Virus record (IMG/VR): IMGVR_UViG_3300042890_003920
Length of the DNA stretch: 47,255 bases
DNA from: a virus
Taxonomy: Duplodnaviria; Heunggongvirae; Uroviricota; Caudoviricetes
Strand: one strand, 5' to 3'
In this document: one piece after another, positions 342 through 43,122 of the stretch
How positions within the stretch are numbered: the first letter of the stretch is position 1
How the letters are laid out: each line of letters opens with the position of its first letter
Notes under the pieces: generated by a model
What the model was told of the DNA's origin: nothing
Database searches by the model: none
What the model saw: the letters and a program-made list of their open reading frames with translations, nothing else
Program-made: the position numbers and the translations under genes

Positions 342-432
342 TTCCTTTTTGTTTTAAATATTCATCTAAGTTAAAATCTTCTGGTATCTGACCATCAAAT
401 TGATTTAATAATTCCATGTAAATTTCTTTCAT
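331..432 (-). CDS. Small 33-aa hypothetical protein (MKEIYMELLNQFDGQIPEDF...)
   Basis: TAATG overlap with the upstream stop at 432; fills the gap in the operon. Confidence 0.45.
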   Translation of the reverse strand: MKEIYMELLNQFDGQIPEDFNLDEYLKQKGNEI

Positions 433-1019
433 TATCCTAATAGTGTTTTTAGAGCTTTATCTCTTTTTAATGTTTTTAATTCTGTGTCAATAGATTCCTT
501 AACCTTTTCATAACCTATAATTGTTTCGCTGTATATTTTTTCGTGATGTTCTAGAATGAATCCCCATAGTTGAGAAAGTATTAATGTACTTGTTTCTGTA
601 TTATCACAATTATATGATGCACTTCCACTTGTAAATGCAGTACCCACAACAGTTTTTATAACAGTAAATGATGCTAGATTTGCCTTATTATCATAAACAT
701 ATAATCTACTTCTAATTCGTAGAGTATTTGTAGGATTATATAATTCTATCGTATATGATCTTCTCTCACTAATACCATAATTCCTTTCTTGTTCAATTTT
801 ACTTGTCCAATCTTCAAGTTTAATAGATTCTAATACGTCTTTAAGTAAAGTATGGTCAGGATCAAAATCTTCCCATTTAGGAGTTTCATATTTTGGTATA
901 GGCAGACGTAGCCAGTCTTTATCTATTTCCTCAATAACTTTTTTCTTAGTTAGTGTATAGTTTTTATATGCAAAGTAAATTACTACTGCAAATAGTGTTA
1001 AGTTTATTAAGTATATCAT
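432..1019 (-). CDS. Hypothetical protein, N-terminal TM anchor, C-terminal RDKALKTLL motif
   Basis: ORF track; hydrophobic N-terminus. Confidence 0.8.
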   Translation of the reverse strand: MIYLINLTLFAVVIYFAYKNYTLTKKKVIEEIDKDWLRLPIPKYETPKWEDFDPDHTLLKDVLESIKLEDWTSKIEQERNYGISERRSYTIELYNPTNTLRIRSRLYVYDNKANLASFTVIKTVVGTAFTSGSASYNCDNTETSTLILSQLWGFILEHHEKIYSETIIGYEKVKESIDTELKTLKRDKALKTLLG

Positions 1020-1408
1020 TTTAATATTTTTCTAATTTTACGGTCTCGTTCTTCAGATTTTTTATTTTCTTCTTCTTCTTTAAGAAAATCTTCATATTCT
1101 TTTGTATCATACATACTCATATCTGTTTCATGATTAGAAACACTTGATAATAAAATAAAGATAATTATTACAATTGGTATTAAAATTGTGGTAAACCAAT
1201 CCATTTGTTTATTATTTATAGAACAAAGACCTATAAATGCTTGTATTTTTAGCCATAATATGAATAATTTCTTTTTATCTATGTTACCTAACCTGGTTTT
1301 CACTTTATATTTTACCATTTTAGAAGACTTTGTAGAAAAGTATATTAGTATAGCGATAATAGAAAGTGGGATAAAAAATAAACAGAACATAAATATATTA
1401 CTTACCAT
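1016..1408 (-). CDS. Hypothetical membrane protein, C-terminal RDRKIRKIL motif
   Basis: ORF track 1016..1417; start moved to 1408 on TAATG coupling; two hydrophobic segments. Confidence 0.75.
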   Translation of the reverse strand: MVSNIFMFCLFFIPLSIIAILIYFSTKSSKMVKYKVKTRLGNIDKKKLFILWLKIQAFIGLCSINNKQMDWFTTILIPIVIIIFILLSSVSNHETDMSMYDTKEYEDFLKEEEENKKSEERDRKIRKILK

Positions 1409-1608
1409 TATTTCCAAAATTTATACCACTTCTTTTCAGTATCTTCAAGTAGTGCGTTAATCTTTTCGTCTCTTTTTTCTGCTTGTTTACATGATTTACA
1501 TAGATGTGGATCCATATCGTGATGTAGTGCGTGTCCTGTACTTTCCCCACAATTTTTACAATCGTGTGTTAACCAAGATGAGTCTGAACCTTCGTGAAAG
1601 TGTGCCAT
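1408..1608 (-). CDS. Small putative Zn-binding protein (CxxC...CxxC) with RDEKINALL motif
   Basis: HDCKNC and HLCKSC motifs. Confidence 0.7.
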   Translation of the reverse strand: MAHFHEGSDSSWLTHDCKNCGESTGHALHHDMDPHLCKSCKQAEKRDEKINALLEDTEKKWYKFWK

Positions 1609-1609
1609 A

Positions 1610-1873
1610 TTATTGTAAAATTAAATTTAATTTATATTCTCTACTAAATGCTTTTATTTCTACATAAGGTATTTTTTTAAACCTTGATGCGTGTTTTATT
1701 CTGCCATCATCTGTGTGATAGTAAACTTGTTTTTTTCTTTGGTATTCTTGTCCGGTGATAACAACTAATTCATTATCTAAATATAGATAATTAGGAACAC
1801 CTAATTTTTCTAGTGTTCTCCAGTAATCTCCTTGTAAACTTAAATTTTCTGCGGTAATTATTTTTAAAATTAT
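1610..1873 (-). CDS. Unannotated ~87-aa ORF with non-ATG (ATA/ATT) start, ending SREYKLNLILQ
   Basis: Open frame fills the gap between promoter 1878-1885 and the gene at 1608; carries the shared C-terminal motif. Confidence 0.55.
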   Translation of the reverse strand: MILKIITAENLSLQGDYWRTLEKLGVPNYLYLDNELVVITGQEYQRKKQVYYHTDDGRIKHASRFKKIPYVEIKAFSREYKLNLILQ

Positions 1874-1877
1874 ATTA

Positions 1878-1885
1878 CAAAGATA
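1878..1885 (-). promoter_or_regulatory. Bacteroidota sigma70-type -7 element TATCTTTG
   Basis: Matches TAnnTTTG; heads the minus-strand small-gene operon. Confidence 0.7.
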
Positions 1886-1898
1886 CGATATAAAATGA

Positions 1899-40870: not shown

Positions 40871-40934
40871 AGTTTATGAATATTTTTTTATAGAGTATAT
40901 ATTTTATAATAAAAATGACTTTTTATTATAAAAT

Positions 40935-40965
40935 AAAAAAGAGAGCTAAAAGCTCTCTTTTTTTT
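40935..40965. terminator. Intrinsic terminator after purA
   Basis: AAAAAAGAGAGCT-AAA-AGCTCTCTTTTTT. Confidence 0.85.
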
Positions 40966-42235
40966 ATCTTAATATTGTTTGTGTTCTATCGGGTCCAACT
41001 GATACTATTTTAATTGGTGTTTCTAATTCCTTTTCTATAAATTCAATATACTCTTTTAATTCCTCTGGTAAACTATCAAATTCTTTTATATTAGTTATAT
41101 CTTCTGACCAACCATCAAACCCTATATAAATAGGTTCTAAGTTCTCTGGTTCAATGTTATAAGGAAAGTGAGTAATTATCTCACCTTTATATTTATAACC
41201 TGTACAAACCATTATCTTATCAAATCCAGATAGAACATCACCTTTCATCATCATAAGTTCAGTTACCCCATTTATTTGACAACTGTATTTAAGAGCCACT
41301 AAGTCTAACCAACCACATCTTCTAGCTCTACCAGTAACAGAACCAAATTCGTTACCAATCTTAGCCATTTTTTCTCCTACTTCATCAAATAATTCCGTAG
41401 GGAATGGTCCACTTCCAACTCTTGTTGTATAAGCTTTGAAAATACCATAAACATCTTTGATTCGATTAGGTGCAATACCCAATCCTGTACAAGCACCTGC
41501 GGCAGTTGTATTAGAAGAAGTAACAAATGGATAAGTTCCAAAGTCAACATCTAATAATGAACCTTGTGCACCCTCACATAAAATAGATTTGCCTTCTTTC
41601 TGAGCTTGATGTAAATACTCTTCACTATCAATAAAAGTAAATTGTTTTAGATACTCAAGTGCTTCTAAGAACTCTTGTTCCATTGTCTCGTAGTTAGTAT
41701 CAAATTGTTTAATAACTGACCATTCGATCAAGTCCTCATGTTTTTCAAATAACTTACAAAATCTTTTATGAAAGTCTGGTAATTCTAAGTCACCAACTCT
41801 TAACCCGTTTCTACCAGTTTTATCCATATAAGTAGGTCCAATTCCTTTAAGAGTAGAACCAATTTTATCTTTACCTTTAGCAGCTTCAGAAGTTGCATCT
41901 AAAAGTTTGTGAGTTGGTAGAATTAAGTGAGCTTTTCTTGATATAAGTAATCTTTTTTTAACATCCATATCAAACTTAGCTAAAGCTTCTACTTCTTGTT
42001 TAAATACAACTGGATCAAGTACAACACCATTACCGATTATATTTACAGTGTCTTTATGAAAGATACCAGAAGGTATAGTTCTAAGTACATGTTTTATACC
42101 ATCAAACTCCAACGTATGTCCCGCATTCGGGCCGCCTTGAAATCTTGCTACGATGTCATATCTTGATGTTAAAACATCTACAATCTTTCCTTTTCCTTCA
42201 TCTCCCCATTGAAGACCTAATAGTAAATCTGCCAT
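40964..42235 (-). CDS. purA: Adenylosuccinate synthetase
   Basis: LQWGDEGKGKIVD, RFQGGPNAGHT, EGAQG..LDVDFGTYPFVTSS, GSVTGRARRCGWLD. Confidence 0.97.
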   Translation of the reverse strand: MADLLLGLQWGDEGKGKIVDVLTSRYDIVARFQGGPNAGHTLEFDGIKHVLRTIPSGIFHKDTVNIIGNGVVLDPVVFKQEVEALAKFDMDVKKRLLISRKAHLILPTHKLLDATSEAAKGKDKIGSTLKGIGPTYMDKTGRNGLRVGDLELPDFHKRFCKLFEKHEDLIEWSVIKQFDTNYETMEQEFLEALEYLKQFTFIDSEEYLHQAQKEGKSILCEGAQGSLLDVDFGTYPFVTSSNTTAAGACTGLGIAPNRIKDVYGIFKAYTTRVGSGPFPTELFDEVGEKMAKIGNEFGSVTGRARRCGWLDLVALKYSCQINGVTELMMMKGDVLSGFDKIMVCTGYKYKGEIITHFPYNIEPENLEPIYIGFDGWSEDITNIKEFDSLPEELKEYIEFIEKELETPIKIVSVGPDRTQTILR

Positions 42236-42469
42236 TTATTCTTCTACTTTTTTAAATCGTTGTTCAATTCCACCTCTTTTATTCTCAACTGTTTCACACC
42301 AAATTGAAAGTGGTCTTGCATAAGTTGACCCAAATGATAATGATTGATAAATCACTAAAGGTTCTTTAGTTTCTGTATGATTTGCTAAAGTGATGATTTT
42401 ATATCTACCACCTTTGTAGTGTTGCCAAGTTTCTCCTGGCATAATTCCGTAGTTTAATTCTTGTTCCAT
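42236..42469 (-). CDS. DUF1653-like protein
   Basis: WQHYKGGRY......HTET.E.LVIYQ.L......ARP. Confidence 0.8.
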   Translation of the reverse strand: MEQELNYGIMPGETWQHYKGGRYKIITLANHTETKEPLVIYQSLSFGSTYARPLSIWCETVENKRGGIEQRFKKVEE

Positions 42470-42471
42470 AT

Positions 42472-42855
42472 TTAGTTTGTAAATTGTATCATGTCGCCAT
42501 TATCGAATATTATTCTAGTTCCATATGAGTTATCATCAAAAATTTGTAAGTAAACTGTTAAGGTTGCTCCTTGTTCTCTGAATGTTGCAGATTGATATTT
42601 CATACCTCCTTGAGTTTCTCCTTCTGATAGATCTGTTTCTTGATCGAAGAATCTTACAGATCCGTCATTCATAACTATTTTAAAGGTTGTAGAGTTTTGA
42701 TAATTGAAAATAATTTTATTTTCTGCATAATCCCATTGAGGAGTTTTATCTTTTCTGATAACACAAATTTTCGAATAATTTCTAGTAAATTGTGATTGTG
42801 CGGAAGCAATTGTTACAGTGAATAGTAACAACATTGTAAGTAATAGTTTTTTCAT
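42472..42855 (-). CDS. Exported hypothetical protein (ASA|Q)
   Basis: Signal peptide. Confidence 0.75.
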   Translation of the reverse strand: MKKLLLTMLLLFTVTIASAQSQFTRNYSKICVIRKDKTPQWDYAENKIIFNYQNSTTFKIVMNDGSVRFFDQETDLSEGETQGGMKYQSATFREQGATLTVYLQIFDDNSYGTRIIFDNGDMIQFTN

Positions 42856-42873
42856 TGAATATGTATTTTTTAA

Positions 42874-43122
42874 TTATACTAATTGTTGTAACATATGTTG
42901 TCTTCTATATTGAAGAAATATTTGTTTACATTGTTCTATTATTAAATCTCCTTCTGAATCGGTATAATGTAAACTGTTTAGTTCTAGTTCGTATGCTGAA
43001 TGTCCAAAATCTATCTTTAAAATTGGTCCGTTATCATATGTATATAAGTCTGTATAAACTATATTAAATGGATATAATTTTTTAATTTCTTCTGTAAATT
43101 GTAATATTAGTTCTTTAGTCAT
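42874..43122 (-). CDS. Hypothetical protein
   Basis: ORF track; coupled to the upstream stop. Confidence 0.65.
   Translation of the reverse strand: MTKELILQFTEEIKKLYPFNIVYTDLYTYDNGPILKIDFGHSAYELELNSLHYTDSEGDLIIEQCKQIFLQYRRQHMLQQLV

Follow-up and report, generated by a model that had tools for sequence, protein, structure and literature searches.

A portable amphipathic helix at the C-termini of unrelated small proteins in one clade of huge T4-like phages

The capsid-targeting sequence (CTS) of phage T4, carried by the internal proteins IPI-III and Alt, is an N-terminal address peptide that marks head-loaded proteins; the prohead protease cuts it off after L/I-x-E. Encapsulin cargo-loading peptides and microcompartment encapsulation peptides are short and terminal, are portable between cargoes and dock on a shell protein. 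They are often C-terminal and amphipathic, and those of encapsulins are Gly-rich and extended. The XB peptide of SspB binds the N-domain of ClpX, the MIM1 helices of ESCRT-III bind the MIT domain of Vps4, and the F-box and PRANC motifs, 40-50 residues long and found in cellular and poxviral substrate receptors, bind Skp1. Finally, the PIP-box, Q-x-x-[LIM]-x-x-[FY]-[FY], tends to lie toward C-termini.

Here, we describe a C-terminal tail found in a 47,255-nt stretch of Caudoviricetes DNA (IMG/VR record IMGVR_UViG_3300042890_003920), referred to below as the window. About one-sixth of the genes in the window carry a tail helix of the form R-D-x-K-I/L-x-x-I/L-L: ten ORFs, together with one candidate lacking a canonical start codon, terminate in [FYI]-x-R-[DNQ]-x-K-[IL]-x-x-[ILV]-[LG] (Table 1). 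All 11 peptides listed in a preliminary description of this DNA are present at the C-terminal ends of the ORFs it named, and the C-terminal enrichment it proposed is borne out. Greedy calling gives 59 ORFs, in which the strict pattern R..K[IL]..[ILV]L matches seven times, always in the last 35 residues, where residue shuffles give an expectation of 0.014; there are none in the 12,686 interior residues (0.06 expected). A 19-column HMM built from the ten tail instances scores them at 16-25 bits and all remaining six-frame ORFs at 4.8 bits or less. When each instance is left out in turn and ranked among 745 ORFs, eight of the ten come first, one 3rd and one 10th, the last being ORF 432-1019. Three further ORFs that had been put forward as weaker cases (4642-4875, 12732-12956 and 42874-43122) each score below 2 bits and are unsupported by the HMM.

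Table 1. Tail-bearing reading frames of the window and the positions of their tails
Frame	Strand	Length	Character	Tail	Tail position	Place of tail
432-1019	-	195 aa	N-terminal membrane helix	RDKALKTLL (weakest instance)	438-464	1 residue before end
1016-1417	-	133 aa	two membrane helices	RDRKIRKIL	1022-1048	1 residue before end
1408-1608	-	66 aa	Cys-rich	RDEKINALL	1447-1473	12 residues before end
1610-1912	-	100 codons	candidate open frame	REYKLNLIL	1616-1642	followed by final Q
10834-11148	-	104 aa		RQIKLKKLG-V (LG-V variant)	10840-10866	
11485-11976	+	163 aa		RNKKLEQLL	11878-11904	
14168-14443	+	91 aa		RQDKINEIL	14396-14422	6 residues before end
14728-15150	-	140 aa		RDKKISKIL	14755-14781	
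22850-23209	-	119 aa		RDKKLEEVL	22865-22891	4 residues before end
26183-26671	+	162 aa		RDEKLKDLL	26633-26659	3 residues before end
28690-28968	-	92 aa		RDEKLEKL	28693-28716	extreme end

The carriers differ widely. Their bodies show no relationship to one another by BLASTP, Pfam or PHROGs, as had been claimed; two have N-terminal membrane helices and one is Cys-rich. ORF 432-1019 has a homologue in the complete 634-kb phage LR745206.1 that terminates in NRSRRLNEIL. The candidate frame at 1610-1912 (minus) has no ATG, GTG or TTG among its 100 codons, although its peptide SREYKLNLILQ matches the tail pattern; it continues the frame of the upstream gene 1925-3181 past TAA-AAA-ACT-AAT-TGA. ORF 10834-11148 contains a UVR-type motif (Pfam PF02151, residues 23-45), and in ORF 11485-11976 the tail is followed by an acidic linker and then KKKGLFERLF. 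Coordinates in the preliminary description refer to ORF ends or starts, the motif of 11485-11976 (+) actually lying at 11878-11904. ORF 14728-15150 is convergent with 14424-14750 and therefore has no same-strand gene downstream; FIRDKKISK[IL]LE is invariant across its 62 homologues, and helix 116-134 of its predicted model bears the tail. Across 17 aligned homologues of ORF 22850-23209, R107, D108, K110 and L115 do not vary.

The tail is a portable amphipathic C-terminal helix of about 13-15 residues, with the consensus K(-4)-[SQ]-x-[IL]-R-D-x-K-[IL]-[NKDE]-x-[IL]-[L/F, or G then I/V]. R1 and K4 are its most conserved positions, and the conserved I-1, R1, K4, I5, I8 and L9 would share one helix face. 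Position 2 is D in 59% of instances, E in 14% and N in 11%; F occurs at position 9 only (11%). The stop codon follows within 0-2 residues of the motif in 70 of 118 instances, within a full range of 0-23 residues. Carriers range from 41 to 731 aa, and the tagged bodies mostly have no known domains in Pfam or PHROGs. In 9% of carriers an N-terminal membrane helix is followed by K/R, so that by the positive-inside rule the tail would be expected on the cytoplasmic side. AlphaFold models of two carriers of differing architecture both terminate in the predicted tail helix, with confidence dropping along the helix.

Tail carriers belong to one clade of huge (260-640-kb), AT-rich, T4-like phages, whose hosts are probably Bacteroidota. 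The tail occurs on 10-12% of ORFs in LR745206.1 and on 4% in two relatives of 263 and 385 kb. At a threshold of at least 8 bits, 90 ORFs of LR745206.1 have a C-terminal tail versus five with an internal one, and this score is reached by no ORF among the 2,305 of five further AT-rich huge phages. We found no published description of the tail in the literature.

Like the T4 CTS, the tail is a short peptide common to otherwise unrelated proteins of a T4-like phage, but it is C-terminal and sits on genes without a late-type promoter motif. None of the 118 instances ends more than 23 residues from the C-terminus, and in LR745206.1 the late-type motif stands upstream of 1 of 90 tagged versus 172 of 875 untagged ORFs (p = 3e-7). 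The tail is thus almost never found on genes with this motif, which also occurs 5' of the terminase, prohead protease and tail sheath genes; the late assignment is based on this motif, and the carriers are predicted to be non-late. An L/I-x-E prohead-protease site is not conserved beside the tail in the position table of 118 instances, LLE-G or LNE-G occurring only after the internal copy in 129541-129960 of the related contig G001 and in its LR745206.1 homologue. It had also been claimed that most carriers lie behind TAnnTTTG promoters. The TAnnTTTG motif lies no further than 100 nt from the operon head in 4 of 10 tagged ORFs and in 10 of 49 untagged ones, which supports the claim only in part.

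Encapsulin and microcompartment peptides resemble the tail in being short, terminal and portable between unrelated proteins, but about 100 tagged proteins per phage genome are far more than the cargoes of those systems, and we know of no shell or compartment in the tail-bearing phages. The SspB XB peptide and MIM1 helices come close in another respect: they are short basic-hydrophobic elements at the extreme C-terminus that tie diverse proteins to one AAA+ machine, and the tail-bearing phages encode a ClpC-like unfoldase and ClpP. However, neither matches the tail in sequence, and the phage unfoldase lacks an adaptor-binding N-domain and is also present in tail-less phages. In F-box and PRANC families, too, one conserved docking module is combined with many different bodies, and such families have expanded in a large virus genome; the tail, by contrast, is a helix of 13-15 residues in a bacterial virus, and its docking partner is putative.

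The spacing [DNQ]-x-x-[IL]-x-x-[IL]-L fits that of the PIP-box, and both tend to be C-terminal. The tail, however, has no aromatic pair, its R1 and K4 fall outside the PIP-box, position 2 is Q in only 4%, and positions 8 and 9 are aliphatic, so that neither the PIP-box nor QL[SD]LF describes it. No gp45-type clamp was found in LR745206.1 with Pfam PF09116 and PF02916, and in G001 these profiles gave only a sub-threshold match of 14 bits; to our knowledge, a hundred clamp clients in one phage would be unprecedented. HeH, SAP and Rho_N motifs consist of two helices with a conserved G-containing turn between them. The tail is a single helix, and its L-G-[IV] variant (12% of instances) reaches the protein end in 0-2 residues. 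Membrane-targeting helices of the MinD/FtsA type are sole membrane anchors, rich in F, L and K and poor in acidic residues. The tail is acidic at position 2 in 73% of instances and has three or four hydrophobic residues, and the membrane, one of the partners suggested earlier, is an unlikely one because some carriers have a membrane anchor of their own.

The tail is under selection as protein, since codon usage at R1, D2, K4, I5, N6, L8 and L9 matches genome-wide usage (p > 0.19), with AGA, AGG, CGA and CGT all used for R. It is also better conserved than the bodies that carry it: in 12 ortholog pairs, all of which keep it, the tail core is 65% identical and 90% similar, versus 37% and 56% for the bodies. 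Among 28 tagged bodies no BLASTP similarity was detected. The body family of ORF 22850-23209 comprises 136 clusters, of which about 17 have a linker and tail and about 115 remote ones are tail-less, stopping 2-6 residues past TETRY[KR]. Because these clusters stop before the tail, this fold does not need it, so that at least one body folds independently of the tail. Tagged genes are gained and lost between relatives of about 90% DNA identity, and the slot between clpP1 and uvsW is filled in two genomes by unrelated tagged proteins. The view of the tail as a portable amphipathic helix on unrelated proteins is thus upheld by protein-level selection, the tail-less homologues of one body and the two predicted architectures.

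The reading we favour, to which we give an even chance, is that non-late accessory proteins share the tail as a portable helix for docking or addressing. Many unrelated small proteins in one phage clade would have acquired it, and the clustering of its conserved residues on one face suggests that it may dock in a groove of a single shared cytoplasmic partner, serving as a shared handle for about 100 accessory proteins in each genome. Such a partner may be encoded by the phage or by the host, and binding may lead to localisation, to transfer to a chaperone or protease, or to assembly on a hub. The phage Clp machine, Hsp70 and the M16 peptidase were examined as candidate readers and none was supported. 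As the tail-positive genomes all belong to one clade, co-occurrence cannot indicate the reader.

A special case of docking, with a protease or a protease adaptor as reader, would make the tail a disposal or processing tag that marks non-late proteins for timed removal or clipping. We consider this unlikely, though it is the best placed of the alternatives. G001 and LR745206.1 both encode an M42 aminopeptidase and a ClpC-like ATPase of 686 aa that has a VGF loop for docking ClpP but lacks a Clp_N domain. Each also has two ClpP paralogues, which share 74-83% identity across the two phages. The late-type motif TAATATATAC lies about 20 nt upstream of the unfoldase gene, whereas tagged genes lack it; ClpP2 is encoded amid clustered tagged genes, and in both genomes clpP1 is followed by a tagged gene. 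The other candidate, a clade-specific M16 (insulinase-type) peptidase, retains its HLMEH zinc site and is present in all tail-positive and no tail-negative near-complete genomes, but 118 other clade-specific proteins share this pattern. Likewise, the same ClpC-like unfoldase occurs in five tail-less huge phages that are 86-100% complete. The tail does lie close to the free terminus, as AAA+ degrons do. Known ClpXP and ClpAP C-degrons, however, depend on non-polar residues set at a constant distance from the carboxylate (LAA in ssrA; RRKKAI at the extreme end in MuA), whereas the offset of the tail varies and the last residue of tagged proteins is mostly K, E, L, I or D. No tmRNA with a tail-like tag was found.

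In a broader form, one phage machine would read about 100 non-late effectors in a virus-owned 'tag and hand-over' system, an idea that we hold to be a long shot. The machine might be the late-expressed N-less ClpC-like/ClpP1P2 with the M42 aminopeptidase, or the clade-specific M16 peptidase. Tagged effectors would be removed or clipped at set times, or else every tagged protein would be an adaptor delivering a different host target to the machine.

It is rather improbable that the helix has no partner and serves only to stabilise small proteins that evolve fast, or to protect their C-termini against host proteases. The carriers are indeed small (median 106 aa), and in the model of 14728-15150 the helix is predicted to begin right after the last strand, with its first half confident. 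From the two models, which give per-residue confidence only, packing of the helix on its own body is possible for some carriers, which weighs against the favoured docking role. Yet the 22850-23209 fold is viable without a tail, an invariant R, D/N/Q and K at fixed spacing on unrelated folds would be superfluous for a generic cap, and the tail is nearly identical across orthologues of 30-60% identity.

Self- or cross-association of tails into homo-oligomers or mixed assemblies is very unlikely. The amphipathic tail spaces its hydrophobic residues in a heptad-like way (-2/-1, 5, 8/9), with R1 at a core-like position, and tagged genes are often neighbours (15 adjacent pairs versus 8.2 expected). 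But a helix of two and a half turns is short to form a stable coiled coil, and it is hard to see what would be gained by linking about 100 unrelated proteins indiscriminately. The invariant R and K on the hydrophobic face would fit a specific acidic groove better than helix-helix packing.

Slightly more doubtful again is a single hyper-diverged paralogue family with the C-terminal helix as its sole recognisable remnant. Clustering, fast turnover and the dearth of known domains would suit it, but pairwise body similarity is absent, the 22850-23209 body belongs to a wide, mostly tail-less family, the carriers span their whole size range with or without membrane helices, and the two predicted models differ in architecture.

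That a DNA or RNA signal at gene ends (a recombination seam, translational coupling region or operator) produces the peptide as a by-product is scarcely credible. In 77% of LR745206.1 carriers the stop does lie within a few nucleotides of the following gene's start (median gap -4 nt), and ATA is over-used at I8 (53 observed versus 34.7 expected), but the codon test largely refutes this reading, nucleotide conservation beyond codons is absent, and a same-strand gene downstream is missing for 21 of 90 and for 7 of 28 carriers. Since tail codons mostly abut the next start codon and ATA is in excess, a secondary RNA-level constraint on them is possible alongside the favoured docking role.

Most genes of giant phages are small ORFans without a functional clue. 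If a tenth of these share a selected docking peptide, they would have a common destination or handler, and a single pull-down with a 15-residue peptide could then assign about 100 unknown proteins per genome to one pathway. The tail is a sequence-only marker of a functional class, that of non-late, cytoplasmic accessory proteins, and being short and portable it may become a tool once its reader is known. Short linear motifs are familiar from eukaryotes and their viruses; the tail is a case in which they can organise a large part of a phage proteome. If the adaptor variant were true, it would be a bacterial-virus counterpart of the F-box/PRANC substrate-receptor families.

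Proteins of the window and of related genomes end in a shared tail, R-D-x-K-I/L-x-x-I/L-L, which is a real, strongly selected and modular C-terminal helix that marks about a tenth of the proteome in one clade of huge phages. Each of the peptides listed in the preliminary description is present in the sequence at the C-terminal end of its named ORF. The pattern is also enriched at C-termini. Its strict form R..K[IL]..[ILV]L occurs in seven ORFs, always within the last 35 residues, with no match in 12,686 interior residues and only 0.014 C-terminal matches predicted by shuffles. 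A 19-column profile HMM built from ten instances scores these at 16-25 bits and the remaining six-frame ORFs at no more than 4.8 bits, and in a leave-one-out test eight instances rank first among 745 ORFs. The weakest genuine instance is ORF 432-1019. Three cases previously described as weaker found no support.

Some tagged ORFs of the window (carriers) have features of their own. The frame 1610-1912 has a good tail and lacks a canonical start codon: the 100-codon open frame 1610-1927 (-), ending in REYKLNLIL-Q, contains no ATG, GTG or TTG. It is in frame with an upstream 418-aa gene, from which it is separated by TAA-AAA-ACT-AAT-TGA, and could represent a non-canonical start, a decayed gene or read-through. 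In ORF 11485-11976 (+), the last 23 residues form an acidic linker past the tail and a terminus, KKKGLFERLF, that resembles membrane-targeting helices of the MinD/FtsA type. In the tagged 104-aa protein 10834-11148 (-) there is a UVR motif (PF02151, E = 1e-4), of a type also found in the middle region of ClpC-like unfoldases.

The 47-kb window is 28% G+C and densely coding on both strands. Its host-like genes for metabolism and transport encode malate:quinone oxidoreductase, adenylosuccinate synthetase, NadR, a TonB-dependent receptor, a radical-SAM enzyme, an R2K ATP-grasp enzyme, RNase H and a HisRS fragment. The ORF adjoining NadR looks PnuC-like from its sequence, and directly upstream of the truncated HisRS-like gene is a gene for tRNA-Cys(GCA). 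The remainder consists of two fibre-like proteins (1,440 aa) and many small ORFs. The 418-aa gene upstream of the frame 1610-1927 and an ORF of 389 aa resemble each other in their C-terminal regions (YPYMDTF...); they have no Pfam match, and relatives in the phage LR745206.1 and in two tail-positive genomes, G010 (385 kb) and G007 (263 kb).

The second half of the window (22418-47255) shares 82-92% DNA identity with the first 20.5 kb of G001, the 179,626-bp IMG/VR contig IMGVR_UViG_3300027631_000002, which encodes a T4-type portal, terminase, prohead protease and tail sheath. Its CheckV completeness of 30% implies a genome of several hundred kb. A 45-mer of the window, searched as an exact match, is absent from IMG/VR. 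LR745206.1, a complete uncultured phage of 634,780 bp, is the sole GenBank phage with DNA similarity to the window; it has 59 tRNA genes, and its proteins include Hsp70 at full length (832 bits), an M16 peptidase whose HLMEH site is intact, and also a Ro60/TROVE-vWA protein and a gp32-like SSB. G001 and LR745206.1 were analysed over their whole length to extend the window. In IMG/VR, the clade's portal protein has 304 relatives.

After iteration, the tail was found on 28 of the 263 ORFs of G001 and the non-overlapping part of the window. LR745206.1 has 90 tagged ORFs out of 965 at a score of at least 8 bits with the arginine at most 36 residues from the end, and 111 at a score of at least 6 bits; internal matches number 5-10. 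All 12 tagged window or G001 proteins with a homologue in LR745206.1 keep the tail there, six of them below threshold, so these counts are lower bounds. G010 has 21 tagged ORFs (of 481) and G007 has 11 (of 315). The tail is on none of the 2,305 ORFs of five further huge phages that are similar in composition (299-369 kb in size and 86-100% complete), which provides both a false-positive control and evidence that the tail is restricted to a clade. One tail-free huge phage, G006 (IMGVR_UViG_3300028676_000003), has I-x-I-[ND]-E-I-R endings (14 observed, 1.2 expected) on a series of roughly 55-aa ORFs at 15-35 kb, perhaps another shared tail or else a repeat family. A full-text literature search found no published description of the motif, and an Atlas feature search with the tail gave no usable match.

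Position statistics were drawn from 118 tail instances. The invariance of R1 is in part a result of how the instances were selected. At position 2 the residues are D (59%), E (14%) or N (11%), and K4 occurs in 84%. Position 5 takes I or L and position 8 takes I, L or V, each in 98%; position 6 takes N, K, E or D, and position 9 takes L (61%), G (12%), F (11%) or I (9%). Weaker upstream preferences are K (-4), S/Q (-3) and I/L (-1). A glycine at position 9 is followed by I or V, which reads as a Schellman-type helix cap. The stop codon lies 0, 1 or 2 residues past the 9-mer in 70 instances. On a helical wheel, I(-1), K4, I8, R1, I5 and L9 would share one face, with D2, N6 and the variable positions on the opposite one. 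Two AlphaFold models, made with family alignments, differ in architecture, and each ends in a tail-containing helix modelled with lower confidence than the body. In 22850-23209 the body (1-88) is followed by a weak linker and a helix (103-115); in 14728-15150 the pLDDT falls from 86 to 56 along the helix (116-134). Foldseek found no match in the PDB at an E-value of 0.001 or better for the first model.

The tail is better conserved than the proteins that carry it. Across 12 ortholog pairs, six core tail positions are 65% identical and 90% similar, compared with 37% and 56% for the bodies. Among 62 homologues of 14728-15150, some as little as 55% identical, FIRDKKISK[IL]LE is unchanged, and the family of 22850-23209 never varies at R107, D108, K110 or L115. 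When 1.84 billion representatives were searched with a profile, 136 clusters of the latter body were found, about 115 of which end 2-6 residues past a conserved TETRY[KR]; only the closest 17 or so have a linker of about eight residues and the tail. The fold therefore exists without the tail, and the tail was added. BLASTP detected no similarity among the 28 bodies of the window and G001, and Pfam and PHROGs returned nothing for 10 window carriers and for nine of 10 large LR745206.1 carriers. In both G001 and LR745206.1 a tagged protein is encoded between clpP1 and the UvsW-like helicase gene, and the two are mutually unrelated (z = -1.2), which looks like cassette replacement with the tail retained. 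Two tagged genes of G001 are missing from the window.

Domains downstream of the few internal tail copies are mutually unrelated, which led us to reject a Rosetta-stone interpretation; the copies in the UvsW-like helicase look like chance matches. This helicase is a single 536-aa ORF in LR745206.1; in G001 it is divided into two ORFs with about 840 bp between them, which may reflect an insertion, an intron or a homing element. Another internal copy, at residue 33 of orthologues in the head gene cluster, is followed by LLE-G or LNE-G, resembling a T4 prohead-protease cleavage site, and the rest of each protein resembles prohead protease residues 60-121.

Carriers have a median size of 106 aa (range 41-731) and are no more basic, acidic or often membrane proteins than other small ORFs. 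Where an N-terminal membrane helix is present it is followed by K/R, which by the positive-inside rule would place the tail in the cytoplasm. The commonest 8-mers just 5' of untagged genes, AATATATA and TAATATAT, stand ahead of structural genes, among them those for terminase, the prohead protease and the tail sheath, and we treat them as a putative late-type promoter motif from this association. In LR745206.1 no more than 45 nt separate such an 8-mer from the start in 172 of 875 untagged ORFs, against one of 90 tagged ORFs (p = 3e-7). From the near-absence of this motif upstream, the carriers are classed as non-late, and they are probably cytoplasm-facing. The claim that host-type promoters precede most carriers fared less well, these being present at four of 10 operon heads.

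The most interesting special case of docking is a disposal or processing tag, which we consider unlikely. The phages encode a full Clp set comprising a 686-aa ClpC-like unfoldase, two ClpP paralogues and an M42 aminopeptidase. The unfoldase lacks the Clp_N domain and has a UVR-type middle region and a VGF loop; its relatives occur on many contigs of 200-640 kb, some with inteins. The late-type motif upstream of its gene suggested timed disposal of tagged early proteins, but the same unfoldase is present in the five tail-free phages, which argues against both the tag and the unfoldase as the partner recognizing the tail (the reader). A complex prediction of the G001 unfoldase with residues 80-119 of 22850-23209 scored 0.00 and counts neither for nor against such binding. 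ARAGORN found no tmRNA in the window, G001 or LR745206.1, which rules against a tmRNA tag.

Other candidate readers fared no better. Tail-free G008, G009 and G017 encode Hsp70, which tail-positive G007 lacks. The M16 peptidase occurs in all tail-positive and no tail-negative genomes, but the former belong to a single clade, and this profile is common to 118 LR745206.1 proteins. Roughly 75 phage proteins are clade-specific, non-late and untagged. For a sliding clamp, which the PIP-like spacing of the tail could suggest, Pfam gp45 models match nothing in LR745206.1 and give only a 14-bit sub-threshold match in G001. No candidate reader stands out by co-occurrence.

Coordinates of features in the window and related genomes
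Feature	Sequence	Coordinates (strand)	Locus
ClpC-like unfoldase	G001	30208-32268	L004
ClpP paralogue	G001	59241-59981	L005
ClpP paralogue	G001	167324-167983	L011
M42 aminopeptidase	G001	155151-156221	L010
Tagged protein, clpP1/UvsW-like helicase slot	G001	167989-168453	
Tagged protein, clpP1/UvsW-like helicase slot	LR745206.1	122918-123550	
UvsW-like helicase halves	G001	168922-170022, 170866-171789	
Head-cluster orthologue with internal motif	G001	129541-129960 (-)	
Head-cluster orthologue with internal motif	LR745206.1	194897-195382 (-)	
Hsp70	LR745206.1	473636-475510	
M16 peptidase	LR745206.1	310766-311875	
Ro60/TROVE-vWA protein	LR745206.1	241087-242538	
gp32-like SSB	LR745206.1	445044-446018	
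tRNA-Cys(GCA)	window	29358-29428 (-)	
ORF of 418 aa	window	1925-3181 (-)	
ORF of 389 aa	window	3489-4658 (-)	

Four other readings are each less likely: self-association, a partner-less cap, a single diverged family and a nucleic-acid signal. The last was tested with codons and largely rejected: those at R1, D2, K4, I5, N6, L8 and L9 occur in genome-wide proportions (p > 0.19), the exceptions being ATA, over-used at I8 only, and CTG at L5, where numbers are small. Since, in addition, seven of 28 and 21 of 90 carriers have no same-strand downstream gene, the tail is not mainly due to a DNA or RNA element; a lesser constraint on the RNA beside the following start codon is possible. Selection on the tail acts on the protein.

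We regard docking as the most likely mechanism, with confidence that is evenly balanced: the tail would bring its carriers to one common partner. The tail consensus is near-identical between phages whose orthologues are 30-60% identical, which suggests that the reader itself is highly conserved; either a core protein of the phage or a hub of the host would fit.
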